Source: a phage | Sequence record: PX880099.1 | Reading direction: 5' to 3' (one strand) | Length of the DNA stretch: 64,000 nucleotides | Shown: piece by piece, positions 48,450 to 60,039 of the stretch | Numbering within the stretch: the first letter of the stretch is position 1 | How the letters are laid out: each line of letters starts with the position of its first letter | Position numbers and translations under genes: made by a program | The notes under the pieces: generated by a model | What the model saw: only the letters and a program-made list of their open reading frames with translations | What the model was told of the DNA's origin: nothing | The model's database searches: none

Positions 48450-48456
48450 AAAGTAT

Positions 48457-48516
48457 TGACAACAAACAACAACCTGATAAGATGTATCACATAGGGCGGC
48501 GGAATGGTCCACCGCT
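48457..48516 (+). promoter_or_regulatory. promoter plus 5' stem-loop cassette 2
   Basis: TTGACA, -10-like TAAGAT/ATAGAT, GTATCAC, then GGCGGCGGA-atgg-TCCACCGCT hairpin. Confidence 0.6.
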
Positions 48517-48540
48517 CACAACAGAAGAGAGATTATCATC

Positions 48541-48813
48541 ATGGCATCATATAGCGCAACAATGATCGTAGCTGGCACCACTGGTAAACCTATGCGCGGT
48601 GGCGGATCTTTCGCTAATATCAATATTGACGGGCGTTTATCCCTGGACGCAGCGATCACCGTGGCGCGGGAAACATTTAAGAAAGAATGTAAATTCAATA
48701 AACAAGATTATCTCGGTTTTGCTATTGAAAAAACCGCGCGCTTTGTTGATTATAAAAGCCCGAAAATGGTTGACACTACATTAAAAGCGCAAGATGTAGC
48801 GTTTTTGCTTTAA
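48541..48813 (+). CDS. hypothetical small protein (cassette gene)
   Basis: 90 aa; purine-rich SD before ATG. Confidence 0.55.
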   Translation: MASYSATMIVAGTTGKPMRGGGSFANINIDGRLSLDAAITVARETFKKECKFNKQDYLGFAIEKTARFVDYKSPKMVDTTLKAQDVAFLL

Positions 48814-48816
48814 GGC

Positions 48817-48872
48817 TTGACATTAACGAATAATTTGTTAATATGTTACATAAAGCGGGAATAGTTCCCGCT
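48817..48872 (+). promoter_or_regulatory. promoter plus 5' stem-loop cassette 3
   Basis: TTGACA-16 bp-TAATAT then AGCGGGAA-tag-TTCCCGCT hairpin. Confidence 0.55.
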
Positions 48873-48889
48873 ATTTGTAAGGTGGTAGA

Positions 48890-49147
48890 ATGTTTTACAT
48901 CAAATTAAAAGGTCACGTGATCGCGTTCAAAGATAACGCTTTTTACAGATTAGCAAAATATGCGTTAATACATCCCCACTATGTTTATATAAGGGGGCGT
49001 GATGAAATAAATATCTTTGATCAAACAACATGCGAGAACATCGAGATCCGCAAGGTTGGCGTACGTGATTATCGTACATCTTTCTACCCTTGCAAGGATT
49101 CAGCAAGTCTTTTTAAAGTATGCCAATTGTTGAAAAAAGGTGGTTAA
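48890..49147 (+). CDS. hypothetical small protein (cassette gene)
   Basis: 85 aa; SD AAGGTGG before ATG. Confidence 0.55.
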   Translation: MFYIKLKGHVIAFKDNAFYRLAKYALIHPHYVYIRGRDEINIFDQTTCENIEIRKVGVRDYRTSFYPCKDSASLFKVCQLLKKGG

Positions 49148-49148
49148 T

Positions 49149-49706
49149 ATGGGCCGCGAATATGTGATCCAGTCTTGGGTAAAACATGAAGCAGATGATC
49201 CGCGCATCATTCCCGATCATCTTATCGATGAATCCACGGGATATAGTGGTGAGCAAATAGGTAACAGATTAGCACGTAGTAACGGCAACGTAAAAGCGCG
49301 TTATGTGCGCCCTGGCTGGCTGGCAAATGGTAACGCTGATTTATCCAGTGCGGAAGATGCGAGCGACGGCGCGAAAGATAATCCTTTGTACAAAGTTGAT
49401 CCAGCTTTTCGTGTCCTGGATGAATACCCCAGCAAGATAGCGGCGCTCGATCAGGCCCTGGAAAGTAAGCGCATCACCTGGACCGCTTACAACATGGCAA
49501 AAAACGTACTTGATGGTAAATTGATTCAAGCTGAAAGAAAATTAGCCAAAATTGCAGCCATAGCCCAGGAGGAAGACGAGGAGACAACGGAAGAGGAAGA
49601 GTACGAAGAGATCCCGCCGTTGTTGTGTGTTGATGCTTTTCCTGATTATCAGCCGACAGAGGAAGAAAAAAGGATCGCACTAGAAAACTTTGAAAATAGT
49701 CTTTGA
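49149..49706 (+). CDS. hypothetical protein with acidic C-terminal region (second gene of cassette 3 operon)
   Basis: Start set at ATG after SD AAAGGTGG; no promoter between it and the upstream gene. Confidence 0.55.
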   Translation: MGREYVIQSWVKHEADDPRIIPDHLIDESTGYSGEQIGNRLARSNGNVKARYVRPGWLANGNADLSSAEDASDGAKDNPLYKVDPAFRVLDEYPSKIAALDQALESKRITWTAYNMAKNVLDGKLIQAERKLAKIAAIAQEEDEETTEEEEYEEIPPLLCVDAFPDYQPTEEEKRIALENFENSL

Positions 49707-49761
49707 CATATCGCCGCCACTGGCATAATATTTACCACGTAGGGCGGCAATGGTGCCGCTC
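49703..49761 (+). promoter_or_regulatory. promoter plus 5' stem-loop cassette 4
   Basis: TTGACA-17 bp-TAATAT-TTACCAC then GGCGGCA-atgg-TGCCGCT hairpin. Confidence 0.6.
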
Positions 49762-49788
49762 ATAGTGAAATTATGCAAGAGGCTTACA

Positions 49789-49884
49789 ATGATTAATAAA
49801 GAAAATAGCTTGACGGTTGGAACGATTAACGCTATCATTCTAGCCGTTCCATTTTGGGTTGTAGTAGCGGCTATTATTTTCTAA
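49789..49884 (+). CDS. possible 31-aa hydrophobic peptide
   Basis: ATG after AAGAGG; single predicted TM segment; only ORF between cassettes 4 and 5. Confidence 0.3.
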   Translation: MINKENSLTVGTINAIILAVPFWVVVAAIIF

Positions 49885-49892
49885 AAATATTC

Positions 49893-49952
49893 TTGACAAC
49901 GTTTTTTAATCTGATAAGATGTATCACGTAGGGCGGCGGAATACTTCCCCGC
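49893..49952 (+). promoter_or_regulatory. promoter plus 5' stem-loop cassette 5
   Basis: TTGACA-16 bp-TAAGAT-GTATCAC then GGCGGCGGAA-tac-TTCCCCGCC hairpin with one bulge. Confidence 0.6.
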
Positions 49953-49974
49953 CAAAACAAAAAAGGGTAACACA

Positions 49975-50337
49975 ATGAGCAAGCAAATCAATACTATCAT
50001 GTTTAATCTGGTATCTTTCCGCGATGATATGAAAAATTTACCACGTGAAACGGTTGATATTCATGTTTCAGCTTATCGCGCCCTTATTGACATGTTACCG
50101 CTAAAACGTGATCAACATGCCGCTAATATGATGCTTAATGCTATGCTTAAAAAGATGATTCAAACGGATCTTACTCTGGCGTATGAGTATCAAGGGCGCT
50201 TATATGCGACTTACAACAAAGCGGTACCTGGTCTGGGAAGTACCGAAGAGTTGCACGGCTTAAACCTGGATCAAAACACTTGGGATAGTATGCGCCGCGT
50301 TATGGTATGGGCCGAAAGCGGTAAAATTTACGAATAA
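49975..50337 (+). CDS. hypothetical protein (cassette gene)
   Basis: 120 aa; SD AAAGGG before ATG. Confidence 0.55.
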   Translation: MSKQINTIMFNLVSFRDDMKNLPRETVDIHVSAYRALIDMLPLKRDQHAANMMLNAMLKKMIQTDLTLAYEYQGRLYATYNKAVPGLGSTEELHGLNLDQNTWDSMRRVMVWAESGKIYE

Positions 50338-50343
50338 AAACGG

Positions 50344-50401
50344 TTGACACTGTTTAAACTTCTGGTATAGTTTATCACGTAGGGCGGCAATGGTGCCGCC
50401 A
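50344..50401 (+). promoter_or_regulatory. promoter plus 5' stem-loop cassette 6
   Basis: TTGACA-16 bp-TATAGT-TTATCAC then GGCGGCA-atgg-TGCCGCC perfect hairpin. Confidence 0.65.
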
Positions 50402-50420
50402 ACAATAAAAGGTTAACATC

Positions 50421-50600
50421 ATGGCTATCATTGCAAAAACTGAGATTATAGGTTTAGATTCGATCCTCCTGGCTTATGAGGAAACTTTAAAAATGTATGT
50501 AGTGACCTATGGTGATTATGTGCGTGAATACGAATACATTGATCTTGCTTTCGAATGTTACATTCGCCAGGTCAATAAAGCCTATAATGATTATCGTTAA
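50421..50600 (+). CDS. hypothetical small protein (59 aa, below ORF-track cutoff)
   Basis: ATG after AAAAGG; only ORF between cassettes 6 and 7. Confidence 0.45.
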   Translation: MAIIAKTEIIGLDSILLAYEETLKMYVVTYGDYVREYEYIDLAFECYIRQVNKAYNDYR

Positions 50601-50619
50601 AAGTTTTAGTCTTATACTA

Positions 50620-50670
50620 TTGACAATGAGTGATAGTATAAGCATAATAACTTTTATCGGGAATACTTCC
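50620..50670 (+). promoter_or_regulatory. promoter plus short 5' stem-loop cassette 7
   Basis: TTGACA-17 bp-CATAAT then GGGAA-tac-TTCCC hairpin. Confidence 0.5.
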
Positions 50671-50697
50671 CACTAACCAAAAAGAGAGAGTGACACC

Positions 50698-51063
50698 ATG
50701 GCTATTAATATCAATGTTTCCGCTTATGCTACCCTGGCTAACACGGCTAAAATTGAATTATCCAGCATTGAGGCGGTGCATATTAGCGCCCGTCGCTGGT
50801 TTCAACAGTCCTACGGTAACACATATTTTTCTTTAATGGTTGACGTTGAGATCGGCGGTAAACTGATCGAGGTGGTTAACGTTCCGTTTCAATATGGCTA
50901 TGGTGATCATTTTGATACCGTCGCCCTGGAAGAATTTAGCAAGGTTATCAACCTTGAGGGCAAGGAATTTTCACGCGGCGCGTATCTTTCCCGTTTTTGC
51001 CGTGACAATGGGATCACTGTATACAGTCATGCAAGCGATGTAAAACGTAAAAAAGATTTATAA
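50698..51063 (+). CDS. hypothetical protein (cassette gene)
   Basis: 121 aa; SD GAGAGAG before ATG. Confidence 0.55.
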   Translation: MAININVSAYATLANTAKIELSSIEAVHISARRWFQQSYGNTYFSLMVDVEIGGKLIEVVNVPFQYGYGDHFDTVALEEFSKVINLEGKEFSRGAYLSRFCRDNGITVYSHASDVKRKKDL

Positions 51064-51069
51064 AAAGCA

Positions 51070-51129
51070 TTGACAGCACGAATAAAAAGAGTAAACTGTA
51101 TTACATAGAGAGCGGGAATAGTTCCCGCC
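51070..51129 (+). promoter_or_regulatory. promoter plus 5' stem-loop cassette 8
   Basis: TTGACA-16 bp-TAAACT-GTATTAC then GCGGGAA-tag-TTCCCGC hairpin. Confidence 0.6.
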
Positions 51130-51152
51130 TCATTCAAAGAGAGATTATCATC

Positions 51153-51392
51153 ATGGCTATTACTAAAACTTACAACGGTCACAAAAACAAAACTCACTGG
51201 AATGTAAGCCTTTGGATTAATAACGACGAATCATTATATCGGTTGGCGAAAGAATTTATCGCCGCTAATACTAATCGTAATGATGCTGCCCGTGATATGA
51301 TGTTATTCCTGGAACAAACTGGACAAGATAAAACTCCAGACGGTTTCAAGTATAGCACTACAGCGATCCGCGCCGCGATGGTTGGAATGTAA
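51153..51392 (+). CDS. hypothetical small protein (cassette gene)
   Basis: 79 aa; SD AGAGAG before ATG. Confidence 0.55.
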   Translation: MAITKTYNGHKNKTHWNVSLWINNDESLYRLAKEFIAANTNRNDAARDMMLFLEQTGQDKTPDGFKYSTTAIRAAMVGM

Positions 51393-51401
51393 TAAAAACA
51401 G

Positions 51402-51461
51402 TTGACAACGTTTAAAATTAGTGTAAGATGTATCACATAGGGCGGGAAGTGGTTTCCCGCC
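51402..51461 (+). promoter_or_regulatory. promoter plus 5' stem-loop cassette 9
   Basis: TTGACA-16 bp-TAAGAT-GTATCAC then GGCGGGAA-gtggt-TTCCCGCC hairpin. Confidence 0.6.
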
Positions 51462-51483
51462 AACAACAGAGAGATTAAAGATT

Positions 51484-51711
51484 ATGGCTATCAATATTGT
51501 TCGCGTATCCGGCACCGTTGGCACTTCCCAGGTTATTGCAGTTGTAACAAACAAAAAGATTAATGATGTATGTGAGATCTTGAATAAGTGGGCTATTGCT
51601 AATTTTGGGGAATATGCAAGCGTCGAGTACATCGAATCCTACCAGGTGCCAACCATCAGCCTGACCGATCTCAACGTTGATCGCCTGTTATGCCTGGATG
51701 AATTAATCTGA
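51484..51711 (+). CDS. hypothetical small protein (cassette gene)
   Basis: 75 aa; SD GAGAG before ATG. Confidence 0.55.
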   Translation: MAINIVRVSGTVGTSQVIAVVTNKKINDVCEILNKWAIANFGEYASVEYIESYQVPTISLTDLNVDRLLCLDELI

Positions 51712-51720
51712 AAAAGATTG

Positions 51721-51777
51721 TTGACACGGGAAAGAAAAAGAGTAAACTGTATTACGTAGGGCGGCAATAGTGCCGCT
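51721..51777 (+). promoter_or_regulatory. promoter plus 5' stem-loop cassette 10
   Basis: TTGACA-16 bp-TAAACT-GTATTAC then GGCGGCA-atag-TGCCGCT hairpin. Confidence 0.6.
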
Positions 51778-51801
51778 CACAACAGAAGAGAGATTATCAC
51801 G

Positions 51802-52014
51802 ATGGCTAATATCCGCACACTGTTAAAAAATGCAAGTCAAGTTTTATTTTCTGATCACGATCATTTTAATAAAGATATTACAGGCGTGAAGAATATCAAA
51901 GATGTAAAAAGTGTTATGGGTATATATTGCAATGTTAAACGTGTTGGAACGTTCGGTGATAAAGTATTGTACCAATCAGGTGATTACAATTTTACTTTGA
52001 CGATTATTTCATAA
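51802..52014 (+). CDS. hypothetical small protein (cassette gene)
   Basis: 70 aa; SD AGAGAG before ATG. Confidence 0.55.
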   Translation: MANIRTLLKNASQVLFSDHDHFNKDITGVKNIKDVKSVMGIYCNVKRVGTFGDKVLYQSGDYNFTLTIIS

Positions 52015-52019
52015 AACGC

Positions 52020-52081
52020 TTGCAATACTGCAAAAATAAAGTAAACTGTATTACATCAAGGCGGCGGAATGGTCCACCGCC
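52020..52081 (+). promoter_or_regulatory. promoter plus 5' stem-loop cassette 11
   Basis: TTGCAA-16 bp-TAAACT-GTATTAC then GGCGGCGGA-atgg-TCCACCGCC hairpin. Confidence 0.55.
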
Positions 52082-52105
52082 TAACAAAGAGAAGAGGAAA
52101 ATATT

Positions 52106-52273
52106 ATGATCACTTTCGCTACCCGTGAAGCCGCTCGCAACGTTGCACGTAAAGTTAACGCCGCCAACCTGGGCGCTACGCTTAAAGCCCCTGTAAAAGA
52201 TGAATCAGGAAAATGGATCTTCCCTGGTCTACGTCATGCTGACAAGTTAGGTACTTTAAGCCTTAAAAAATAA
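52106..52273 (+). CDS. hypothetical small basic protein (55 aa, below ORF-track cutoff)
   Basis: ATG after SD GAAGAGGAAA; N-terminus MITFA shared with 52526-52747. Confidence 0.45.
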   Translation: MITFATREAARNVARKVNAANLGATLKAPVKDESGKWIFPGLRHADKLGTLSLKK

Positions 52274-52276
52274 TCG

Positions 52277-52314
52277 TTGACTTTTCGTTATAGCGCCTTA
52301 TAATGGGCGCTATA
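52277..52314 (+). promoter_or_regulatory. promoter with palindrome straddling the -10 (variant cassette 12)
   Basis: TTGACT-16 bp-TATAAT with inverted repeat TATAGCGCC..GGCGCTATA enclosing the -10 hexamer. Confidence 0.5.
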
Positions 52315-52350
52315 GAGAAGAGAAACCAGTCACAACAGAGAGAAAATATC

Positions 52351-52512
52351 ATGACCAATAAAGAAAAAGCCATCATTAAAGCACATTATCCACATCTAAC
52401 ATTACGTTTTAAAGCCGATGGATCTGTTATGGCCTCCAGTGGGCGCGGGTATGCTTACGGTTTACTTTACACCGCACAACAAGCGCAAGATCATTTAAAC
52501 GCAGTAAAATAA
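52351..52512 (+). CDS. hypothetical small protein (cassette gene)
   Basis: Start set at ATG after AGAGAGAA (MTNKEK); 53 aa. Confidence 0.45.
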   Translation: MTNKEKAIIKAHYPHLTLRFKADGSVMASSGRGYAYGLLYTAQQAQDHLNAVK

Positions 52513-52525
52513 CAAGGAAACCATT

Positions 52526-52747
52526 ATGATCACTTTCGCTATTGTCGCCGTTGTTGCTGGTCAAGTTTACGTAAATGAGACATTTACTACAGAAGACAAG
52601 GCAGCAGGAGATATAACCGCCGTTTACAATGAGTGCAAGGCAGTAGAAAGGATGTTAGCGCCTTGTATGCTAATGAGTGAACGCCAGGACGGAATAACAG
52701 TATTTACTAACATTGGAACAGGGTACCAAATGGTAGTAACAAAATAA
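52526..52747 (+). CDS. hypothetical small protein (second gene of cassette 12 operon)
   Basis: 73 aa; SD AAGGAAA before ATG; hydrophobic N-terminus. Confidence 0.5.
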   Translation: MITFAIVAVVAGQVYVNETFTTEDKAAGDITAVYNECKAVERMLAPCMLMSERQDGITVFTNIGTGYQMVVTK

Positions 52748-52750
52748 AGC

Positions 52751-52808
52751 TTGACACCGATTTAATTTTTAGTAAACTGTTACAGGTAGGGCGGGAATAG
52801 TTCCCGCT
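52751..52808 (+). promoter_or_regulatory. promoter plus 5' stem-loop cassette 13
   Basis: TTGACA-16 bp-TAAACT then GCGGGAA-tag-TTCCCGC hairpin. Confidence 0.6.
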
Positions 52809-52826
52809 CAAAAAGAGAGAAAGACC

Positions 52827-53180
52827 ATGAAAGCACAAAATGCAATTAAAGAGTACATCCTTGCCGCTATCGATTTTAATGATTACGGTATTACAACCGA
52901 AAAAGAGAAGATCGCGGAATTGATGCGCCGTTTTAATTCCGAGTACTGGTACCCTGATAACCAATCACGTTTTAATTATAGTATTGTTAAAGCACTTGCA
53001 TCATGGTTACAAGGTTTGCCATCAGATATCAATATCGCTTTCGAATATTGGGAAATTGATCGCTTGTTAACATCCTGGGGATACATTAAAGAGAATAGCA
53101 GCGATGATAAAATCCAACGAGAAAGGGAAAATTATTGGCTTTATATTGCAGGCGTGATCCTTGCTTGCTCTTATGAATGA
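52827..53180 (+). CDS. hypothetical protein (cassette gene)
   Basis: 117 aa; SD AGAGAGAAAG before ATG. Confidence 0.55.
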   Translation: MKAQNAIKEYILAAIDFNDYGITTEKEKIAELMRRFNSEYWYPDNQSRFNYSIVKALASWLQGLPSDINIAFEYWEIDRLLTSWGYIKENSSDDKIQRERENYWLYIAGVILACSYE

Positions 53181-53186
53181 TAAACC

Positions 53187-53240
53187 TTGACAATTTTACA
53201 AAACAGTTTAAATTAACAATATAGCGGCAATGGTGCCGCT
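53187..53240 (+). promoter_or_regulatory. promoter plus 5' stem-loop cassette 14
   Basis: TTGACA, weak -10, then AGCGGCA-atgg-TGCCGCT hairpin. Confidence 0.5.
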
Positions 53241-53259
53241 CATATGAAGAGGAAACAAA

Positions 53260-53406
53260 ATGAATACATCTAATCGCGCAGAAAAAATTCAATCTTCCAA
53301 GATCCGCAAAGCCTGGAACGAGGAAGTGATCCGCAAAGGCGACAAGCGTAATAAAACAAAGCGCGGGAAGAGTGACAAATATAATTGGATGGATTTAGAG
53401 GATTAA
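53260..53406 (+). CDS. hypothetical small basic protein (48 aa, below ORF-track cutoff)
   Basis: ATG after SD GAAGAGGAAA; Lys/Arg-rich. Confidence 0.4.
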   Translation: MNTSNRAEKIQSSKIRKAWNEEVIRKGDKRNKTKRGKSDKYNWMDLED

Positions 53407-53413
53407 CATAACA

Positions 53414-53441
53414 AGGGCGCATCAAGCGCCCTTTCTTTTTA
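53414..53441 (+). terminator. rho-independent terminator (module AAGGGCGCAYCAAGCGCCCTTT)
   Basis: AGGGCGC-atcaa-GCGCCCT hairpin followed by TTCTTTTT. Confidence 0.7.
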
Positions 53442-53461
53442 CATGTAGAGGATAAACAAAA

Positions 53462-53647
53462 ATGACTTTAAACGAGCTTAAAACAGCCTACAACGCAACA
53501 TTAAAAATAGCCGTGCGTTACCGTGATGCGTATGGTTTTATCGCGCAGGGCGTGATCCTGGGCTTTTCTGACGATGGTTTGATCTATGTTGATGCACATC
53601 ACAACAAGGTTAAACCTGAAAACGTCATTAGCATAAAATATCTTTAA
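53462..53647 (+). CDS. hypothetical small protein
   Basis: 61 aa; SD GAGGA before ATG; no cassette promoter directly upstream. Confidence 0.5.
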   Translation: MTLNELKTAYNATLKIAVRYRDAYGFIAQGVILGFSDDGLIYVDAHHNKVKPENVISIKYL

Positions 53648-53653
53648 AAACGG

Positions 53654-53710
53654 TTGACAGCATAACCAAGTATGATAAGATGTATCACATAGGGCGGGAA
53701 TAGTTCCCGA
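53654..53710 (+). promoter_or_regulatory. promoter plus 5' stem-loop cassette 15
   Basis: TTGACA-16 bp-TAAGAT-GTATCAC then GGGCGGGAA-tag-TTCCCGACC hairpin. Confidence 0.6.
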
Positions 53711-53732
53711 CCACATAAAAGAGAAAAACATT

Positions 53733-53945
53733 ATGACCACTATCACAACAAAACAAGAAAAAATTATTACAGACATTGCCGCAGTAGCCGCTATTGCTAT
53801 TATTGGTACCTACTATGACACCGCGCGACCTTCCTCCTTACATGAGATCGCCGCCGTTGCATCAGTTGGCGTACTGTTTTACGTTGGTAAACGCTATTTA
53901 TCACCAATGATTAACAAGCTGACACCGTGGAAAAATAAAGGTTGA
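53733..53945 (+). CDS. small membrane protein (cassette gene)
   Basis: 70 aa with two hydrophobic segments; SD AGAGAAAAA before ATG. Confidence 0.5.
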   Translation: MTTITTKQEKIITDIAAVAAIAIIGTYYDTARPSSLHEIAAVASVGVLFYVGKRYLSPMINKLTPWKNKG

Positions 53946-53997
53946 TCCTGTTTTATATTGTGTTATAGTTATCGTGTAGGGCGGCAATGGTGCCGCG
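53942..53997 (+). promoter_or_regulatory. promoter plus 5' stem-loop cassette 16
   Basis: TTGATC-16 bp-TATAGT then GGCGGCA-atgg-TGCCGCG hairpin. Confidence 0.55.
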
Positions 53998-54016
53998 CCC
54001 CTTTGAGGATGCAATC

Positions 54017-54301
54017 ATGCGTAAAGCTAACACCGTGCTAATGTTTTCCCTGATTAATAATGCCGCTTACTTGTCCAACATGACGCAGGAGGGTAACACA
54101 TTAACGGCAACATTCACCAATAAGCTTGACCGAGTGATCATAATCTCACTGAAAACAGTTAGTAAAGGCTTTTACTCGTTAGCTTATCATTGTATCACTG
54201 ACACCGACGAGACAAGCCAGGACTATAGCGCCCCTTTCCCTGAATCAATGGCACGGGAGATCATCGCCGCCGTTGTAAATGATGGTTTGTTTACTGCATA
54301 A
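54017..54301 (+). CDS. hypothetical protein (cassette gene)
   Basis: Start set at ATG after SD GAGGA (MRKANTVL); 94 aa. Confidence 0.5.
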   Translation: MRKANTVLMFSLINNAAYLSNMTQEGNTLTATFTNKLDRVIIISLKTVSKGFYSLAYHCITDTDETSQDYSAPFPESMAREIIAAVVNDGLFTA

Positions 54302-54318
54302 AATAATTCAGAAAAGGC

Positions 54319-54378
54319 TTGCAATAATTTTCAGACCGTGTATATTTAATTCATAGGGCGGCGGGAATAGTTTCCTAA
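54319..54378 (+). promoter_or_regulatory. promoter plus degenerate 5' stem-loop cassette 17
   Basis: TTGCAA-16 bp-TATATT then partially decayed GGCGGGAATAGTTTCC element. Confidence 0.4.
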
Positions 54379-54398
54379 GCAAACGAGAGGATTACACG

Positions 54399-54518
54399 AT
54401 GAGCAAGTATACAGTAGAATACACGGTAGAAAATCCGGCAGTATCCGAAGGTAAAAAGATGACATTTGCCATCAGTATAATCGCTTTCGTTATCACTATC
54501 TTATCAATCATCTTATAA
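54399..54518 (+). CDS. possible 39-aa membrane peptide
   Basis: ATG after GAGAGG; hydrophobic C-terminal half. Confidence 0.3.
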   Translation: MSKYTVEYTVENPAVSEGKKMTFAISIIAFVITILSIIL

Positions 54519-54528
54519 GGTGCGTACT

Positions 54529-54690
54529 ATGAAAACAACAGACATTATCAAAGAGATCGCCCTTGCCGCTGACGTTGAGATCGAGGAAGTGATCGCGCTC
54601 AACCTTACAGAAAACGATCTGCGCAACTATGAAGCGGAAAGCGTGAAAGCAAGCGGCGCGGTCCTGGCATATAATCCGGCTAACAAGTAA
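54529..54690 (+). CDS. hypothetical small acidic protein (53 aa, below ORF-track cutoff)
   Basis: ATG after SD AAGGTG. Confidence 0.4.
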   Translation: MKTTDIIKEIALAADVEIEEVIALNLTENDLRNYEAESVKASGAVLAYNPANK

Positions 54691-54699
54691 GGGGATAAC

Positions 54700-54810
54700 A
54701 TGAATCCAAAAGATATGCAAGCATGGAAAGGGTACGACGATCTAAGCGCCTTGCGCAATAAGTCAAGCCGTAACCTTAGACGGTTGGAAGCAAAGAAAAA
54801 GAAAAAATAG
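54700..54810 (+). CDS. possible 36-aa basic peptide
   Basis: ATG after AAGGGG; ends in a Lys run. Confidence 0.3.
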   Translation: MNPKDMQAWKGYDDLSALRNKSSRNLRRLEAKKKKK

Positions 54811-54811
54811 T

Positions 54812-54868
54812 TTGACAAGTCCGCCTAGTCTGATAATATGTATCTTGTAGGGCGGCAATGGTGCCGCT
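54812..54868 (+). promoter_or_regulatory. promoter plus 5' stem-loop cassette 18
   Basis: TTGACA-16 bp-TAATAT then GGCGGCA-atgg-TGCCGCT hairpin. Confidence 0.6.
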
Positions 54869-54888
54869 CACAAGAAGAGAGAAAAATC

Positions 54889-55173
54889 ATGAAAATCACA
54901 AAAAGCCTAACTAATTATGCAGCACGTCGCGGATTATGTTTAACCGTTGAAAACTTAGGGAAAGAAGACTTTTTGTGTTTTTGGGAGCTTGAAAATGATT
55001 GCGAGTGGATGTTTTCTTATTCTATCTGCGAAGATCAAAACGGTTGTTTGTTAACCTGGCGCGGTAATATCTATTTACCGGAAGAAATTAAAGAAGAGTT
55101 ACCAGGTACGATCATGACAGAGAGACAGCTTAAGGAAGTGATCAATTTTGTAGGGCAAAACATTAAAAAATAA
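54889..55173 (+). CDS. hypothetical protein (cassette gene)
   Basis: Start set at ATG after AGAGAGAAAAA (MKITKSL); 94 aa. Confidence 0.5.
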   Translation: MKITKSLTNYAARRGLCLTVENLGKEDFLCFWELENDCEWMFSYSICEDQNGCLLTWRGNIYLPEEIKEELPGTIMTERQLKEVINFVGQNIKK

Positions 55174-55174
55174 T

Positions 55175-55236
55175 TTGACAGTAGGCAAACAACGTAGTAA
55201 AGTTTATTACATAGAGCGGCGGAATGGTCCACCGCT
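55175..55236 (+). promoter_or_regulatory. promoter plus 5' stem-loop cassette 19
   Basis: TTGACA-17 bp-TAAAGT-TTATTAC then AGCGGCGGA-atgg-TCCACCGCT hairpin. Confidence 0.6.
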
Positions 55237-55258
55237 CACAACAGAAGAGAAACAAATC

Positions 55259-55429
55259 ATGATCCCGACTATGTTTTATGTATCGCGCAAAGGTCACAAT
55301 ATTTTTTGGTCTGAAGATTTAAATGAAGCTATGACGTTTGCCCGTGATCGTGTTGCTATCGGTGGCGTTAATATCACCGTGACCGATGAAAACGGCATTG
55401 AATACTATAACGGCGATGATGAAGAGTAA
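55259..55429 (+). CDS. hypothetical small protein (cassette gene)
   Basis: Start set at ATG after AGAGAAACAA (MIPTMFYV); 56 aa. Confidence 0.45.
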   Translation: MIPTMFYVSRKGHNIFWSEDLNEAMTFARDRVAIGGVNITVTDENGIEYYNGDDEE

Positions 55430-55436
55430 TCAACAA

Positions 55437-55455
55437 GGCGGGATTAATTCCGCCT
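55437..55455 (+). other. promoter-less intercistronic stem-loop GGCGGGA-ttaa-TTCCGCC
   Basis: Hairpin right after the stop at 55429 with no -35/-10 upstream and no T-run. Confidence 0.4.
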
Positions 55456-55473
55456 ATATTAAAGGGTAATACA

Positions 55474-55611
55474 ATGAAAACTTTCAACGCAACAGCCTCG
55501 ACAATTGGTTATATTATTACAGTGCAAGCCGTGGATCTGGTAGCAGCAGCAAACAAGATTAAAAAGATGATCCCGCCAGGTAGTGAATTTTCCGTTTGGG
55601 AAGTAAAATAA
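55474..55611 (+). CDS. hypothetical small protein (45 aa, below ORF-track cutoff)
   Basis: ATG after AAAGGG. Confidence 0.35.
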   Translation: MKTFNATASTIGYIITVQAVDLVAAANKIKKMIPPGSEFSVWEVK

Positions 55612-55614
55612 ACC

Positions 55615-55676
55615 TTGACAATAATTTGTTATCTGGTAAAGTGTATTACGTAGGGCGGGGCAATGGTGCAACGCCC
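55615..55676 (+). promoter_or_regulatory. promoter plus 5' stem-loop cassette 20
   Basis: TTGACA-16 bp-TAAAGT-GTATTAC then GGGCGGGGCA-atgg-TGCAACGCCC hairpin with internal mismatch. Confidence 0.55.
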
Positions 55677-55694
55677 ATTAATGAGGGTAGAATC

Positions 55695-55799
55695 ATGTTA
55701 GAGAAAATTTTCACGGTTGTAATAGTGGGCCTGGCGTTATCGGTTGGAGTGGTTGCAACTATGGCTAACATGATCCTATCTTCCCACGGTATCGGTTAA
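55695..55799 (+). CDS. possible 34-aa membrane peptide
   Basis: ATG after SD GAGGGTAG; single hydrophobic helix. Confidence 0.3.
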   Translation: MLEKIFTVVIVGLALSVGVVATMANMILSSHGIG

Positions 55800-55809
55800 G
55801 GTGAAACAA

Positions 55810-55971
55810 ATGATCACGAACAAAACAGGCAAAACGGAATTTTTACGCGGCTTACAAGTTGGTAAGCCTGAGATCTGGCATTGCACGAAGTCCGCGCATA
55901 ATGAAATGAAAGATTTCACCGCTACTTTACAACGTGTTAAAATATCTATTACGCAGAAAAAGCCTTATTAG
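55810..55971 (+). CDS. hypothetical small basic protein (53 aa, below ORF-track cutoff)
   Basis: ATG after AAGGTGAAACAA. Confidence 0.4.
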   Translation: MITNKTGKTEFLRGLQVGKPEIWHCTKSAHNEMKDFTATLQRVKISITQKKPY

Positions 55972-56020
55972 TAGTAGAAAACGAGATCCCGCAAACCATT
56001 ATTATTGTCGAGCGTACAGC

Positions 56021-56407
56021 ATGAAAACAGAAATCATTAACGAAATCATCAACGGCTATAAAGAAGCCTTTATTTTTGCTGAATCAGCAAGGGATCATGA
56101 AGGTAATTTTATAGATGACATGACTGATTATGATTTTTCAGATCAAGCCCATCAACGGATCGCCCAGGATGTAACAGCCTTTATTAATGCTAATCTTGCC
56201 GCTATCTCTGAGGCAATGAGCGACGGCGCAACAGCCAACCAGATCGGGAATGATTTACATTTTACCCGTAACGGTCACGGCGTAGGATTTTGGGATCGCC
56301 CTGAAATATACACCACTAACACGGCGAACCGCCTAACAAATGCAGCTAAGTTTATGCCGAACGTGTCGGCTTACATTGGTGAAGATAATTTGATTTATAT
56401 TGAATAA
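56021..56407 (+). CDS. hypothetical protein
   Basis: Start set at MKTEIINEI; weak SD, possibly translationally coupled; 128 aa. Confidence 0.45.
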   Translation: MKTEIINEIINGYKEAFIFAESARDHEGNFIDDMTDYDFSDQAHQRIAQDVTAFINANLAAISEAMSDGATANQIGNDLHFTRNGHGVGFWDRPEIYTTNTANRLTNAAKFMPNVSAYIGEDNLIYIE

Positions 56408-56413
56408 AAAGTA

Positions 56414-56470
56414 TTGACACAGATCGCCAGTGTGCTAATATTTACCACGTAGGGCGGCAATGGTGCCGCC
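56414..56470 (+). promoter_or_regulatory. promoter plus 5' stem-loop cassette 21
   Basis: TTGACA-16 bp-TAATAT-TTACCAC then GGCGGCA-atgg-TGCCGCC perfect hairpin. Confidence 0.65.
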
Positions 56471-56488
56471 GATAATGAGGAAAATAAA

Positions 56489-56788
56489 ATGGAAACTATC
56501 GCTATTGTTACCGTAGAAAAACTGGTTGTTGGTGATGTGTTCGCGTTAATGGTGCCTAACAGCAGCAAACTGGGCGCTTATGAAGTGATGGACCATAAAA
56601 ATGAATCATTTGGCGACGGTTGCACAATGGCGGTAAAATCCTTAAAGGATGGAATCATCCGCCAGGCTAACTGGCACAAAGGGAATCAAGTCGGTTTAAT
56701 ATCAGCTAATTTCTTGCCAGAAGAGCAAACGTTAGACCAACTATCAGGCGGTAAGACGTTAGCCGAACTACTGGAAACAGCGATCTAA
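56489..56788 (+). CDS. hypothetical protein (cassette gene)
   Basis: 99 aa; SD GAGGAAAATAAA before ATG. Confidence 0.55.
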   Translation: METIAIVTVEKLVVGDVFALMVPNSSKLGAYEVMDHKNESFGDGCTMAVKSLKDGIIRQANWHKGNQVGLISANFLPEEQTLDQLSGGKTLAELLETAI

Positions 56789-56802
56789 TCAACAAAGGGG
56801 CG
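56787..56802 (+). other. promoter-less stem-loop GGGGCG-gcaa-CGCCCC
   Basis: Perfect hairpin overlapping the stop at 56788; near-identical copy at 57079-57094. Confidence 0.45.
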
Positions 56803-56832
56803 GCAACGCCCCACATCAGAAAGGAAAAGATT

Positions 56833-57069
56833 ATGAGTATTGCAACAGTATTAAACGCCGTTAAAACCGCTGAATCATCCGGCTTGCATGTTGAGCTTAT
56901 AGATCAACCAGGTGGCGATCTCCTTGTCCAGGTTTACCCGCCGAAAGTAGGGGATGATTATTATTGGGCTTATTCTGATACGTTCGAACAAGTAGACACG
57001 AAAGCGATCACGGCTTTTATTTTAAAAGCTATTGAAGAAAATAACTTTCATCATAACATCAATCAATAA
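56833..57069 (+). CDS. hypothetical small acidic protein
   Basis: 78 aa; SD AAAGGAAAAGA before ATG. Confidence 0.55.
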   Translation: MSIATVLNAVKTAESSGLHVELIDQPGGDLLVQVYPPKVGDDYYWAYSDTFEQVDTKAITAFILKAIEENNFHHNINQ

Positions 57070-57078
57070 ACCATAAGC

Positions 57079-57094
57079 GGGGCGGTAACGCCCC
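57079..57094 (+). other. promoter-less stem-loop GGGGCG-gtaa-CGCCCC
   Basis: Second copy of the 56787 hairpin, immediately after the stop at 57069. Confidence 0.45.
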
Positions 57095-57123
57095 ATTAAA
57101 CGCAATAGGAAGAGGATAGACGC

Positions 57124-57414
57124 ATGAAAAACATGATCGCAGTAGTTGCCCTAGTTGTTGGTATTAACGCGCCTGTACTGGCTAATGAGTTGTCAGAATC
57201 CATCACGCTAACCGATATCAACGCAATAAACCGGATCGGCGTTAATTATCGCCTATGCCTTGCCGCTAAAACTTTCCAGGACGGCACGACAGAATACCAC
57301 GGATTCGAGGGTATCCGCTGCGGTGAGCTTGCACGCGACCTTAAAGAAGATCCAGACCTTGAGGCCATACCGATGACCGTAAACGGTAAAGCTTACGTAA
57401 ACCGCCAACAATGA
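57124..57414 (+). CDS. secreted small protein (signal peptide)
   Basis: MKNMIAVVALVVGINAPVLA signal peptide; SD AGGAAGAGGA before ATG. Confidence 0.55.
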   Translation: MKNMIAVVALVVGINAPVLANELSESITLTDINAINRIGVNYRLCLAAKTFQDGTTEYHGFEGIRCGELARDLKEDPDLEAIPMTVNGKAYVNRQQ

Positions 57415-57545
57415 GAAAGGTAATCATCACAATGGGGATCGTAGTAGCAACGCTGGCGCTTATCCCCTTCATGGTTGAACATGTGCTGATCAGTGTTGTC
57501 CTTGTAGTCAGTGACCTATTGGAAACGGTTGGCACCTGGTTTTAA
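57411..57545 (+). CDS. possible 44-aa membrane peptide
   Basis: ATGA overlap with upstream stop; two hydrophobic stretches. Confidence 0.3.
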   Translation: MRKVIITMGIVVATLALIPFMVEHVLISVVLVVSDLLETVGTWF

Positions 57546-57550
57546 GATAA

Positions 57551-57580
57551 TAAATAGGGCTTGCAATAGTCCTATTTTTT
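57551..57580 (+). terminator. terminator-like hairpin with T6 run
   Basis: TAGGGC-ttgcaata-GTCCTA imperfect stem followed by TTTTTTG. Confidence 0.4.
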
Positions 57581-57620
57581 GTTATACTTATTGAACGGGC
57601 GGCACCTGGGAGCAGGTGAA
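57561..57620 (+). promoter_or_regulatory. promoter followed by CACCTG-ggag-CAGGTG palindrome (variant element)
   Basis: TTGCAA-16 bp-TATACT; then GGGCGG and a perfect CACCTG/CAGGTG inverted repeat; about 100 nt ORF-free leader follows. Confidence 0.4.
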
Positions 57621-57719
57621 GATAATCACCGGAAGATCCCGCTATATATCGATAGCTAATACCTATCAAACAACAAAACATCAAAGAGATAAACTATCAA
57701 ATCTTTACAATCCTACCTA

Positions 57720-57778
57720 TTGACACCGGATCACGCTTACATTATTATTTATCACGTAGGGCGGGAATGTTTCCCGCC
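57720..57778 (+). promoter_or_regulatory. promoter plus 5' stem-loop cassette 22
   Basis: TTGACA, AT-rich -10 region, TTATCAC, then GGCGGGAA-tgt-TTCCCGCC perfect hairpin. Confidence 0.6.
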
Positions 57779-57796
57779 TGATTTAGGAGTCATATC

Positions 57797-58030
57797 ATGA
57801 TCGAACAAATTAAAAGCACTAAACCAAATGTTAACGGTAATGTTTCTCACTTTATCGGGGATAATGAAAGAGGTACACCGTACGCCGCCGTAACCGTTCA
57901 ACCGAACGGGGATTATTGGTTTACCGTGTACGGATCTTACTCTTTTGGACGTTCGGCACATGATAAGATCTTGCAAGTGGTTAAGCCTACTGGGAAGAAT
58001 ATCACAGCAGAAAAATTTTATAAAAAATAG
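57797..58030 (+). CDS. hypothetical small protein (cassette gene)
   Basis: 77 aa; SD AGGAG before ATG. Confidence 0.55.
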   Translation: MIEQIKSTKPNVNGNVSHFIGDNERGTPYAAVTVQPNGDYWFTVYGSYSFGRSAHDKILQVVKPTGKNITAEKFYKK

Positions 58031-58032
58031 CT

Positions 58033-58091
58033 TGCTTTATATACCCTGTTAACTTATAGTTATTGCGTAGGGCGAGCAATACAGCAAGCCC
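58033..58091 (+). promoter_or_regulatory. promoter plus degenerate 5' stem-loop cassette 23
   Basis: TTGCTT-16 bp-TTATAG/TATAGT then GGGCGAGCAATACAGCAAGCCC imperfect inverted repeat. Confidence 0.45.
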
Positions 58092-58108
58092 ACAAAGAGG
58101 AAAATAAA

Positions 58109-58477
58109 ATGAGCAAATCAGCAATTAAAGCACTTGAAAAAGCACAAGAAGTGATCGCAACGTCAACCACTGGCGCAAAGGTTAATCTCGTTTGTTATCT
58201 GACAGATGAAACTATCCGTAAAAATTGGCGTAATGCTGATTTACTGGCTTGCTTATTGATTAATAGTGTCGCTAATGCTTTCCAGTGTGAAACAGCCGAG
58301 AGCCTGGAGGAAAACTTGTTTGATAATATGGATCAAGCCATTGAAACCTATATACAATCAAACCTGGATAGCTGGAACAGTAAAACATGGCCCGACAATT
58401 TACGCGATACAACTGATCAACTGATCCGCCTTGCCCTGATGGTTGAACGCGATAACGTTTACAACAGCACAAAGTAA
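58109..58477 (+). CDS. hypothetical protein (cassette gene)
   Basis: 122 aa; SD AAGAGGAAAA before ATG. Confidence 0.55.
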   Translation: MSKSAIKALEKAQEVIATSTTGAKVNLVCYLTDETIRKNWRNADLLACLLINSVANAFQCETAESLEENLFDNMDQAIETYIQSNLDSWNSKTWPDNLRDTTDQLIRLALMVERDNVYNSTK

Positions 58478-58486
58478 GATTATACA

Positions 58487-58510
58487 AGGGCGCACTAAGC
58501 GCCCTTTAAC
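58487..58510 (+). terminator. terminator-like hairpin (same module as 53414 and 59050)
   Basis: AGGGCGC-actaa-GCGCCCT followed by TTTAAC, weak T tail. Confidence 0.45.
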
Positions 58511-58536
58511 GTAAAGAAATGTAAATAATGCGCTAT

Positions 58537-58571
58537 CCCCTATTGACAGGGGATCGGCGTTATATTATATT
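58537..58571 (+). promoter_or_regulatory. promoter with palindrome around the -35 (variant cassette 24, no 5' hairpin)
   Basis: TCCCCT-aTTGACA-GGGGA inverted repeat enclosing -35 TTGACA; 17 bp; TATATT. Confidence 0.5.
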
Positions 58572-58616
58572 TAACTTACTGGCAGCAAACAACGAAACGA
58601 AACAAAGGACAACATC

Positions 58617-59036
58617 ATGAACATTAAATCAAATAATCCAGCTTACTCCTTCGATAACGCTTTTTGTCACGGTAGCGCCGCCAAAGGCTTCGAAATCGAT
58701 GGTAAATTGGTTATCGTGAACGTTGACGGGGAAGAGGTTGCAGTGTATCCGGTAAACGATGTTAAAAGCCGTTTACAATGCCGCATGGATGTTACCGCAT
58801 ATCAGCTTGATCCGGTCCGTGTAGTTGCCTTGGTGTTAGAGGAAGAGATCAAAGCAATGCATCACAGTAATAAGTTTATTGGTGACGCGCAGGATAATAT
58901 GAACGTTTGCCGCCATAAAGTTAATGAAGCATTGAAAGAATGCGGTTTTAAGGATCTGATGATTAAACGTGATGAAAAATTCCGCTTTCGTAATGACCTG
59001 GCAAACCGGATCTACTCAATCTATGAAGCGTTATAA
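58617..59036 (+). CDS. hypothetical protein (last gene of array)
   Basis: 139 aa; SD AAAGGA before ATG; followed by strong terminator. Confidence 0.55.
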   Translation: MNIKSNNPAYSFDNAFCHGSAAKGFEIDGKLVIVNVDGEEVAVYPVNDVKSRLQCRMDVTAYQLDPVRVVALVLEEEIKAMHHSNKFIGDAQDNMNVCRHKVNEALKECGFKDLMIKRDEKFRFRNDLANRIYSIYEAL

Positions 59037-59049
59037 TTGACAACAAAAC

Positions 59050-59078
59050 AAGGGCGCACCAAGCGCCCTTTCTTTTTG
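59050..59078 (+). terminator. rho-independent terminator (module AAGGGCGCAYCAAGCGCCCTTT)
   Basis: AGGGCGC-accaa-GCGCCCT hairpin followed by TTCTTTTT. Confidence 0.75.
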
Positions 59079-60039
59079 CCCGAACAATATTGATAGCTTT
59101 CGCCTATGAAAAACCGACACAGAACAAAACTGAATAAATCGCGGTATCGAGCTAATCAACCAGCAAACGAATAACCATACCTCCCAGGGTTACAGGCTGT
59201 TAGAGAGCCATTTAGAGCGGTTAAAATCGATCAACAACCAACAACAAACCATCAAAAACACCCTTTTACCTCCTTTCTAGTGCAATGATAACCATTATCA
59301 TCTACCCATGATTATCTATGCAATATAAGCGCATAATTATAATGTTGATAATAGTTCGCAACAACTAACCAACAAACAACATAAAACAATAAGCAAACTA
59401 ATCATAATCAAAGGAATAATAGCAAGATGATTGATAACGACAAACAATCAAACCATGATGAATACTAAGCAAGATAACGATAACACGACAAAACAACCAA
59501 CTAACGAACAATAACAAACGAAACCATTAAAATAATAACTATTAGCAAAATAGTGCATGAATGAAATCATTACAAAACGAATCATTCATAGAGTCATCAT
59601 TAGCACGCTATGCCGGACACATAGCGAGCTAATAATAAGCCAACTACACCCCAACAATCATAACCATCGGTGATGGTTATTTCTTGTTACTGCGTAGCTT
59701 GCAATAATTGCAAGCGTAATGACGCTTACACTTATTGCGCTGGCTTATTATTAGCATTATATGTAATTACCAAGATCATAACATTAGCGCAATAACAATA
59801 ATCATTGTGGTAATTACGTAAGGAAACAATTAGCATGGCAATAATTATGGGGGCAATGGGAGGATGATTATCATCATTCCGATACATTGCACACTATGCA
59901 CATAATAGAATAAAAAGCAATAATTTTGGGGGCGAAATGTTACCGCCACAGGCGGGAATGTTGAGCAAGTTCTCTTAAACGTAAATAAAATCAGAATAAT
60001 CTTGATTTATTTTAGTTTTTATGTTAATAAACGTTTAAA

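Follow-up and report, generated by a model that had tools for sequence, protein, structure and literature searches.

Between two early genes of a phage genome, we found an unannotated regulatory module that combines a terminator, a promoter, and a structured RNA leader. The module lies at positions 57546-57796 of a 64,000-nucleotide (nt) stretch of phage DNA (sequence record PX880099.1; "the window" refers to this whole stretch), and in the records of relatives that we viewed (Ro121lw and ESCO13), this interval is a gap without annotation. It is gene-free: a terminator with a built-in promoter comes first, and a structured RNA leader follows (Table 1). Judging from its sequence, the module is conserved, noncoding, early, and regulatory, and it is present in a single copy. 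The roughly 1.8 kb around the locus are 99.8% identical (nucleotide comparison) to Escherichia phage vB_EcoM-Ro121lw and 97-99% identical to ESCO5, ESCO13, and phAPEC8_ev052 (Phapecoctavirus, Stephanstirmvirinae). By this similarity, the window is a Phapecoctavirus genome, from an E. coli phage that resembles phAPEC8 and ESCO13. From about 41 kb on, its long open reading frames (ORFs), including the early-type array in which the module sits, are on the + strand.

Table 1. Features of the module and its neighbors (positions in the window; aa, amino acids).
Feature	Position	Strand	Basis or remark
Upstream hydrophobic ORF, 44 aa, function not assigned	57411-57545	+	full-length match to phrog_16005, E = 5.5e-30
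Intrinsic terminator, stem AAATAGGGCT/AGTCCTATTT, 10 pairs, 6-nt loop	hairpin 57552-57577; whole 57552-57580	+	terminator scan; T tract TTTTTT at 57575-57580
Predicted promoter P1, 16-bp spacer	57561-57588	+	promoter scan, 9/12; -35 TTGCAA 57561-57566 (in the terminator loop), -10 TATACT 57583-57588
5' leader element, ~50 nt, conserved	57595-57649	+	covariance model, 18-sequence alignment
GGGCGG	57597-57602	+	
Outer arms GGCGG and CCGCT	57598-57602 and 57639-57643	+	
Inner hairpin CACCTG, GGAG, CAGGTG	57603-57608 and 57613-57618	+	conserved core CCTG/CAGG
Conserved tract AAGATAATCACCGG (the AAUCACCGG tract)	57619-57632	+	
ORF-free, G-poor, CA-rich spacer	57646-57719	+	composition; nine-phage comparison
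Alternative small spacer hairpin GCTAT/ATAGC	57641-57645/57652-57656	+	
Alternative small spacer hairpin GATAG/CTATC	57651-57655/57663-57667	+	
Best-conserved spacer island TATCAAATCTTTACAAT: TATCAAATCTTTA overlapping AATCTTTACAAT	57695-57711	+	fixed 8 nt 5' of the P2 -35
Standard cassette, promoter P2 (TTGACA at 57720, 17 bp, TATTAT to 57748)	57720-57796	+	scan, 11/12
P2 cassette 5' hairpin GGCGGGAA/TTCCCGCC	57760-57778	+	
Shine-Dalgarno (SD) sequence AGGAG	57785-57789	+	
Next gene, 77 aa, function not assigned, Phi92_gp247 / rV5 gp170 family	57797-58030	+	phrog_9227, E = 8e-48

The terminator and the promoter occupy the same DNA. The first-pass annotation of this stretch had pointed out a promoter, TTGCAA-16 bp-TATACT, that overlaps the preceding terminator; this promoter (P1) is where it was described, and it is conserved in relatives. 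A TG one base 5' of the TATACT gives an extended -10 (TGtTATACT, 57580-57588) that begins inside the T tract. P1 is predicted to start at A57594/57595, and the predicted spacing from the 3' end of the terminator to this start is ~12-15 nt. As for the terminator, the homologous hairpin in Schickermooser and Murica was annotated as such by the depositors. Across 11 distinct sequences, 90.6% of the cells in the stem are paired and two pairs are altered on both sides, a level of pairing and compensation that was matched by 8 of 500 shuffles. By its layout, 57552-57588 is a promoter-coupled terminator.

Taken alone, the score of P1 is within the range of chance (the scan found 49 sites versus 35 expected). 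The real support for P1 and for the leader element is comparative and does not come from this score. The -10 ends exactly 6 nt before ACGG in all four of the unrelated upstream contexts that we found: TTGCAA-16-TATACT with the -35 in the terminator loop, as in the window; TTGTTT-16-TATGCT, also with the -35 in the terminator loop; TTGACT-18-TATTCT with a different hairpin (A7_1 and Murica); and TTGCCT-17-TATTAT without a terminator (muut-type phages). The layout of terminator, -35, and -10 is identical in rV5, A7_1, and Murica, with different hairpins. Sequence conservation begins exactly at the predicted +1.

The leader element has a single copy in the window: a covariance model scores 77.9 bits at the element, and the next-best site in the 64 kb scores 11.5 bits. 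To compare relatives, we extracted 22 versions of the region, which gave 18 distinct sequences in the alignment of the element. The first-pass annotation had also noted GGGCGG followed by a perfect CACCTG-GGAG-CAGGTG inverted repeat, which is indeed present (57597-57618), and had described these as replacing the usual hairpin of the early cassettes. That description is half right. A standard cassette in this genome has TTGACA, 16-17 bp, TAnnnT, 7 nt, GTAGGGCGGCAATGGTGCCGCT (with GTAGGGCGGCAATGGTGCCGC as the 5' hairpin), a CA/purine-rich leader, and ATG; about 20 near-identical copies lie at 48456-58100 (48.4-58.1 kb). The standard hairpin is interrupted in the element, which starts with GGGCGGCA and ends with CCGCT and has ~33 nt where the standard hairpin has an ATGG loop. 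Because these outer arms are identical to those of the standard hairpin GGGCGGCAATGGTGCCGCT, the element looks like an expanded version of it and not like an unrelated structure. (Read on the - strand, the 5' hairpins of the cassettes score as terminators.)

The minimum free energy structure of the window's element has the outer stem plus a 6-bp inner stem, with a pairing probability of 0.92; the inner hairpin is predicted with probabilities of 0.85-0.92 in the window, Eryne, and A7_1. A 5'-terminal stem-loop domain is predicted in every lineage version that we folded (-12 to -26 kcal/mol), and the rV5 fold has z = -4.4 relative to shuffles. What is conserved is a smaller 4-bp hairpin, that is, CCUG, four loop bases, and CRGG, in which 98-100% of cells keep the pairs, with changes from U-A to U.G; RNAalifold independently predicts this hairpin. 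The loop is GNRA (GGAA, GGGA, GCGA, GUGA, or GCAA) in 12 of the 18 distinct sequences, GGAG in the window's group, and GGGGA once. The right arm is CAGGGG in ESCO13, muut, and Eryne and CGGGGG in Vequintavirus, PD06, and Schickermooser. Over the 45 nt containing the perfect palindrome, the window's sequence is matched exactly by only 3 of 125 records, and phAPEC8 itself differs by one base. By chance, 160 nt would contain 0.31 perfect 6-bp inverted repeats with loops of 3-8 nt, and 0.02 if at least four positions of each arm must be G/C; across the whole window, there are 77 G+C-rich 6-bp inverted repeats versus 8.4 +/- 3.2 expected. Judging from these comparisons, the perfect palindrome is a rare, lineage-specific strengthening of a small conserved hairpin.

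Rfam 15 has no matches in the window at gathering thresholds, and with E values up to 10, the sole match is a chance 11-bit match in a neighboring cassette hairpin. ARAGORN found neither transfer RNAs nor tmRNAs in the window, and BLAST of a 134-nt block against 5,426 E. coli genomes gave no meaningful match.

Between the element and P2 is a 74-nt spacer with 4 G, 17 C, and 35 A, which puts it in the lowest 0.5% of windows for G content. It resembles a cassette leader without the start codon. We found no + strand terminator-like site at 57594-58030 in the terminator scan, nor, in the test for a terminator of the transcript's own, up to 59049; in rV5 as well, no own terminator was found downstream of P1. 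The 3' part of the spacer includes a conserved island whose TATCAAATCTTTA (57695-57707) is a perfect match to the IHF core consensus WATCAANNNNTTR, at -61 to -49 of P2. This consensus has just two perfect matches in the 64 kb versus 6.9 expected; the genome looks depleted of IHF-consensus sites. The island and its 8-nt spacing are kept in the divergent A7_1, and phi92, which lacks the rest of the module, retains the sequence from TTTACAAT onward. The island is thus a candidate upstream site (IHF- or UP-type) of P2, and the 3' third of the spacer may be upstream DNA of P2. In Vequintavirus, the spacer is merely 20-30 A-rich nt before the next promoter, so the part that is common to both subfamilies is the terminator, the promoter, and the 50-nt element.

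In a BLAST comparison, 251 phage records matched all or part of the 261-nt region, each of them at a single place. Among genera with 75% identity in DNA polymerase, a 126-nt block has 88-96% identity; the polymerase gene of the window (8224-10815) has 75% nucleotide identity to that of Justusliebigvirus and no nucleotide matches at all to Vequintavirus. The terminator, promoter, and element are nevertheless ~82% identical in rV5 and its relatives (Vequintavirus). We also compared nucleotide identity to the window, segment by segment, in nine Stephanstirmvirinae. Identity is 77-96% for the element, 89-96% for the spacer, and 62-99% for the P2 promoter and leader. The downstream gene is 76% identical in PD06, muut, and SD2 (59-62% at third codon positions) and is replaced outright in KKP3264, M2929, and 92CQ, and the upstream terminator/promoter is replaced in five phages. 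By these identities, the module is conserved better than its neighboring genes. We searched for more distant homologues as well: pattern scans of IMG/VR gave only three real loci plus chance matches, and two metagenome scans gave nothing real.

The block is retained when either flank is replaced, and relatives have swap and deletion junctions right at the borders of the module. In the muut type, the upstream flank is swapped at the -10, and in PHB05/L030, a deletion joins ~57705 to ~59075. At this junction (L030 5458-5620, and L050 for PHB05), the spacer runs up to ...CAAATCTTT and then continues with the T tract of a terminator homologous to that at 59050-59070; three genes (57797-59036) are removed, and two GATAGCT..CCTAT motifs end ~72 nt apart. 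In the window, a direct repeat flanks the terminator/promoter, with copies at 57524-57551 and 57594-57626 that are 70-75 nt apart (AACGGTTGGCACCTGG versus AACGGGCGGCACCTGG, 14/16 identical, plus AAGATAAT in both, 8/8). The upstream copy is the last 22 nt of the 44-aa ORF and its stop region, which encodes the C-terminus ETVGTWF*, and the downstream copy is the 5' end of the element; a 9-mer, GGCACCTGG, occurs three times in the window versus 0.22 expected. The repeat suggests that the present arrangement may have originated by duplication or recombination. As far as sequence comparison can tell, the module is either under strong constraint or horizontally exchanged among coliphages, or both.

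We propose, with moderate confidence, that the module provides a cis-acting noncoding 5' leader that is made from a second, upstream promoter of the next gene. The intrinsic terminator would end transcription that arrives from the upstream array of early cassettes, and the same DNA would serve as a sigma-70 promoter, from which the host's RNA polymerase would re-initiate ~7 nt beyond, at ~57595. From about +3, the new transcript would fold into a GC-rich stem-loop domain of 50 nt that is related to the 5' hairpin of the ~20 cassettes but is expanded. Its apical part would hold the small tetraloop hairpin (the 6-bp "palindrome" in this phage) and the conserved AAUCACCGG tract. Because there is neither a start codon nor a terminator, we infer that the RNA runs on, through the 74-nt G-poor leader and P2, into the 77-aa gene and so is a long alternative 5' leader, begun at a tandem upstream promoter. 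The structured 5' domain would act in cis, most likely either by protecting the 5' end from decay or by binding a factor that alters what becomes of the RNA. The 3' end of the spacer may double as upstream promoter DNA of P2 (the IHF/UP-like site). A function at the level of RNA is favored because conservation starts at the predicted +1 and because a small hairpin underlies the palindrome.

Several observations weigh against this proposal. P1 has just 9/12 matches, and in some phages the -35 is a poor one (TTGTTT). The 77-aa gene already has a strong promoter of its own in P2, and the benefit of a second one upstream is unexplained. The fold of the window's element is not significantly above shuffles (z = -1.6), and changes in the inner hairpin are one-sided only, without double-sided covariation. 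Furthermore, a longer outer stem is predicted to outcompete the inner hairpin in Vequintavirus, PD06, and Schickermooser, leaving the latter a probability of ~0-0.06. Part of the high identity could be due to coliphages having recently exchanged early cassettes horizontally, and not to selection. Finally, neither the covariance model nor BLAST found a copy of the module in the early region of phi92, which implies that the module is dispensable and accessory.

We weighed four alternative explanations. A stand-alone early small RNA of ~60-200 nt, made from P1, with its 3' end formed by Rho or by processing in the spacer, could act in trans through a single-stranded AAUCACCGG. In favor of this, the module contains a conserved promoter but no ORF, and its 5' domain is structured; the untranslated spacer (C/G = 4.25, 5% G) is rut-like; and the module follows the host (E. 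coli phages of two subfamilies) and not phylogeny, which fits a host-directed accessory function. It is at the 3' end that this idea runs into difficulty, as an intrinsic terminator is present in no lineage and the rut-type end is not conserved, with only 20-30 nt from the element to the next promoter in Vequintavirus. Potential targets are not apparent either: the reverse complement of AAUCACCGG has six matches in the 64-kb window (with at most one mismatch) versus 9.4 expected, and the RNA has no similarity to any E. coli sequence and belongs to no Rfam family. We consider a separate small RNA to be possible but unlikely. Thus, where the first-pass annotation suggested a small RNA, a function at the RNA level is favored, but a discrete RNA that ends before 57720 is unsupported, as no lineage has a terminator there. 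Alternatively, the module might be a decayed cassette or recombination scar, a standard unit that lost its ORF and persists through exchange among coinfecting coliphages. Its arms and its CA/purine-rich spacer do resemble a cassette leader without the ATG, a direct repeat flanks the terminator, phi92 does without the module, and its borders are recombination junctions (the upstream swap at the -10, the swap of the downstream gene, and the deletion in PHB05/L030). A scar should not have kept the spacer as the best-conserved segment of the locus, above the P2 promoter and leader (62-86%) and the third codon positions of the adjacent gene, nor the promoter at its exact spacing in four contexts, nor ~82% identity of the 5' part in Vequintavirus, whose polymerase has no nucleotide matches; and lytic phages, being limited by packaging, rarely retain 126 nt of junk across genera. 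This makes a scar rather unlikely.

The two remaining alternatives are much less probable. The palindrome had been suggested to be a distinct type of operator, and a dimeric regulator that binds CACCTG/CAGGTG might control P1 or block elongation, given that positions +9 to +24 of P1 form a perfect 6-bp inverted repeat and that so few such repeats are expected by chance. This suggestion does not hold up well, because the right half-site varies (CAGGTG, CAGGGG, CGGGGG) even among phages that are ~97% identical to the window, and few records match the window's version. The variable positions are the central four, and in most variants the first loop base is G and the fourth is A; this loop-like variation, mostly GNRA, argues for an RNA hairpin and not an operator. 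There is also no second copy of the site in the window, and we view an operator as very unlikely. That the stretch encodes a small protein is hardly credible. No ORF is conserved before P2 at 57720, in agreement with the first-pass annotation, which had called the leader ORF-free: the ORFs that touch 57594-57719 are of 26 aa (TTG start), 35 aa (GTG start), and 58 aa (- strand), and none of them is conserved. The 26-aa ORF (57579-57659) and the 35-aa ORF (57616-57723) are the candidates. By eye, several differences between the window and rV5 seem synonymous in the 57579 frame, and some records have coding sequence (CDS) calls over the stretch, such as bas55_0127 of JeffSchatz. However, close relatives have frame-breaking indels: the run of G varies from 4 to 11, and there are changes of -1 (Schickermooser), -2 (92CQ), and +1 (rV5) nt inside the element and an insertion of 2 nt in ESCO13 just 3' of it. 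Because these indels are not multiples of three, the stretch is evidently noncoding. The GTG at 57616 is present in the window type only, which, together with the ESCO13 insertion, eliminates the 35-aa ORF, and the TTG start of the 26-aa ORF overlaps the -10 and lacks an SD sequence. The deposited CDS calls also have different starts and lengths, and one of them reads the opposite strand. These mutually inconsistent calls include L005 2528-2626 (JeffSchatz), L054 279-437 (92CQ), and L052 315-449/206-355 (M2929), and they are probably annotation artefacts.

A bolder version of our proposal is that the 50-nt element, with or without the spacer, represents a new family of early noncoding RNA that is horizontally exchanged among E. 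coli myophages of two subfamilies and that acts on the machinery of transcription or decay, as a nut- or put-like signal, or in trans on a host factor. Such a signal would consist of a GNRA-type hairpin and a linear tract, be read as RNA just after the promoter embedded in the terminator, and render the polymerase or the untranslated RNA resistant to Rho or to terminators farther on. We think that this is quite unlikely.

How does the module compare to known systems? Promoter-coupled terminators have been characterized experimentally in bacterial chromosomes, with a mapped example in Acinetobacter baumannii (Fletcher et al. 2026, bioRxiv 10.64898/2026.08.19.745784). In those elements, the DNA of the stem-loop contains the -35, the -10 comes right after the T tract, and the 3' and 5' sites are ~10 bp apart between tandem genes (bioRxiv 10.64898/2026.08.19.745784). 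The module shares this geometry, with TTGCAA in the loop and TGtTATACT starting from the T tract, but it is in a lytic phage, the RNA ends are predicted, and P1 would drive an ORF-less structured leader instead of a gene. In T4-like phages, composite terminator/early-promoter cassettes known as PeSLs occur in hyperplastic early regions at indel and replacement junctions (Arbiol 2010, PMC2839356; Comeau 2014, PMC4122927). Here too, a terminator is combined with an early promoter motif at indel and replacement breakpoints between related phages. Unlike the composite in the window, which is single-copy, PeSLs are multi-copy, and a conserved 50-nt leader element is not part of them. The cassette that this phage does have in many copies is arranged in the opposite order, with the stem-loop following the promoter, and the phage families are unrelated.

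Two other comparisons concern the leader. Stabilizing stem-loops are found at the 5' ends of bacterial and phage mRNAs, for example in the 5' untranslated region of ompA. The element likewise has a GC-rich hairpin within ~3 nt of the predicted 5' end, as do the standard cassettes, but its apical region is expanded by ~33 nt with conserved sequence, which is more than plain end protection requires. The nut sites of lambda combine a boxA (CGCUCUUUAACAA-like) with a boxB hairpin that has a GNRA-like loop, and the module also has a small hairpin with a GNRA-type loop just 3' of an early promoter and 5' of terminators, which we take as a lead only. A boxA-like UCUUUA-CAAU (57702-57711) follows ~85 nt after the hairpin; compared with UCUUUAACAA, it lacks one nucleotide. 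The boxA-like motif is absent 3' of the element in Vequintavirus. The hairpin itself keeps its 4-bp stem, with a loop that is GNRA in most of the distinct sequences and GGAG in the window, and it is not predicted to form in Vequintavirus. A cognate N-like protein has not been identified, though no search aimed at one was made. Given that the distance of the motif from the -35 is fixed, upstream DNA of P2 is the better explanation for it.

Among phages of the wider rV5-like group, PhiTE expresses a noncoding RNA locus, the pseudo-ToxI escape locus (Blower 2012, PMC3475682), so functional noncoding decoys do occur in such phages. The module has no sequence similarity to it. A repeat search found no ~36-nt tandem repeats in the module (only the octamer CTATCAAA occurs twice, 31 nt apart), and the ToxI-like repeats of the PhiTE-like phage CB7 are at another locus, where they adjoin tRNA-Tyr and phiTE_202/203.

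A terminator-embedded promoter is therefore an already known arrangement, and the ORF-less expanded leader element is without a described family. The element is absent from Rfam and from the papers that we found, including the rV5 genome paper, which tabulates promoters and terminators and does not mention it. In the literature, we found nothing relevant on the transcriptomics of Vequintavirus, Phapecoctavirus, or Stephanstirmvirinae. As it stands, the module is a moderately interesting regulatory feature and not a new kind of system. If our proposal is true, the module would be a natural phage case of a terminator and a promoter fused into one element, together with an unannotated structured leader RNA that is better conserved than DNA polymerase across genera of therapy coliphages (phAPEC8, ESCO, rV5, BASEL). 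It would give a handle on the organization of early transcription in poorly understood phages, mark a junction at which early genes shuffle, and correct spurious CDS calls in several deposited genomes.

We considered and rejected several other candidates. A strong - strand promoter-like site, which could give an antisense transcript, is present in muut-type phages and not in the window. This site (TTGATA-17-TATAAT, 11/12; L009 muut 572-600) lies inside the module in muut/SD2-type phages and arose by the change CCCGC -> CTTAT. The ops element of RfaH, GGCGGTAG, has an essential T that is C here. A mimic of CRISPR repeats was likewise dropped, with no support in the sequence, and a mimic of 16S helix 45 or the anti-SD does not fit with the lack of BLAST similarity to E. 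coli, rRNA included. For an R-loop replication origin, the sole turning point in GC skew is at ~40 kb, where it coincides with the switch in ORF strand. A pseudo-ToxI or Type III antitoxin decoy was prompted by a phiTE_096-like gene next to the module in some relatives, but the ToxI-like locus of CB7 is elsewhere.

We also made some observations on the surrounding genome. The DNA polymerase gene of the window is detectably similar (67-70% at the nucleotide level) to those of Pseudomonas Pakpunavirus-like phages. Phages of the window's Phapecoctavirus type and Vequintavirus have early-region cassettes in common despite having no detectable polymerase similarity. After the terminator at 59050-59070, there is an ORF-free stretch (59071-59556, to ~59660) with 44% A and 12% G, which has the motif GATAGCTnnnnCCTAT and CAACAA-type runs in common with the spacer. 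A direct terminal repeat is annotated in phi92 ~1.1 kb past gp248, and the records of Ro121lw and ESCO13 end at about position 59960 of the window; by synteny with these three phages, 59071-59556 would be in the genome-end or terminal-repeat region. ToxI-like 36-nt antitoxin repeats (90-100% identity), which are unrelated to this locus, are present in 80 phage records with hosts that include Klebsiella, Salmonella, Vibrio, and E. coli, well beyond the published case of PhiTE. Lastly, twin terminator hairpins, ACAAGGGCGCAC(T/C)AAGCGCCCTTT, at 58484-58507 and 59048-59071 are 96% identical and 564 nt apart, and a third hairpin that is similar to them is at 53413-53433.

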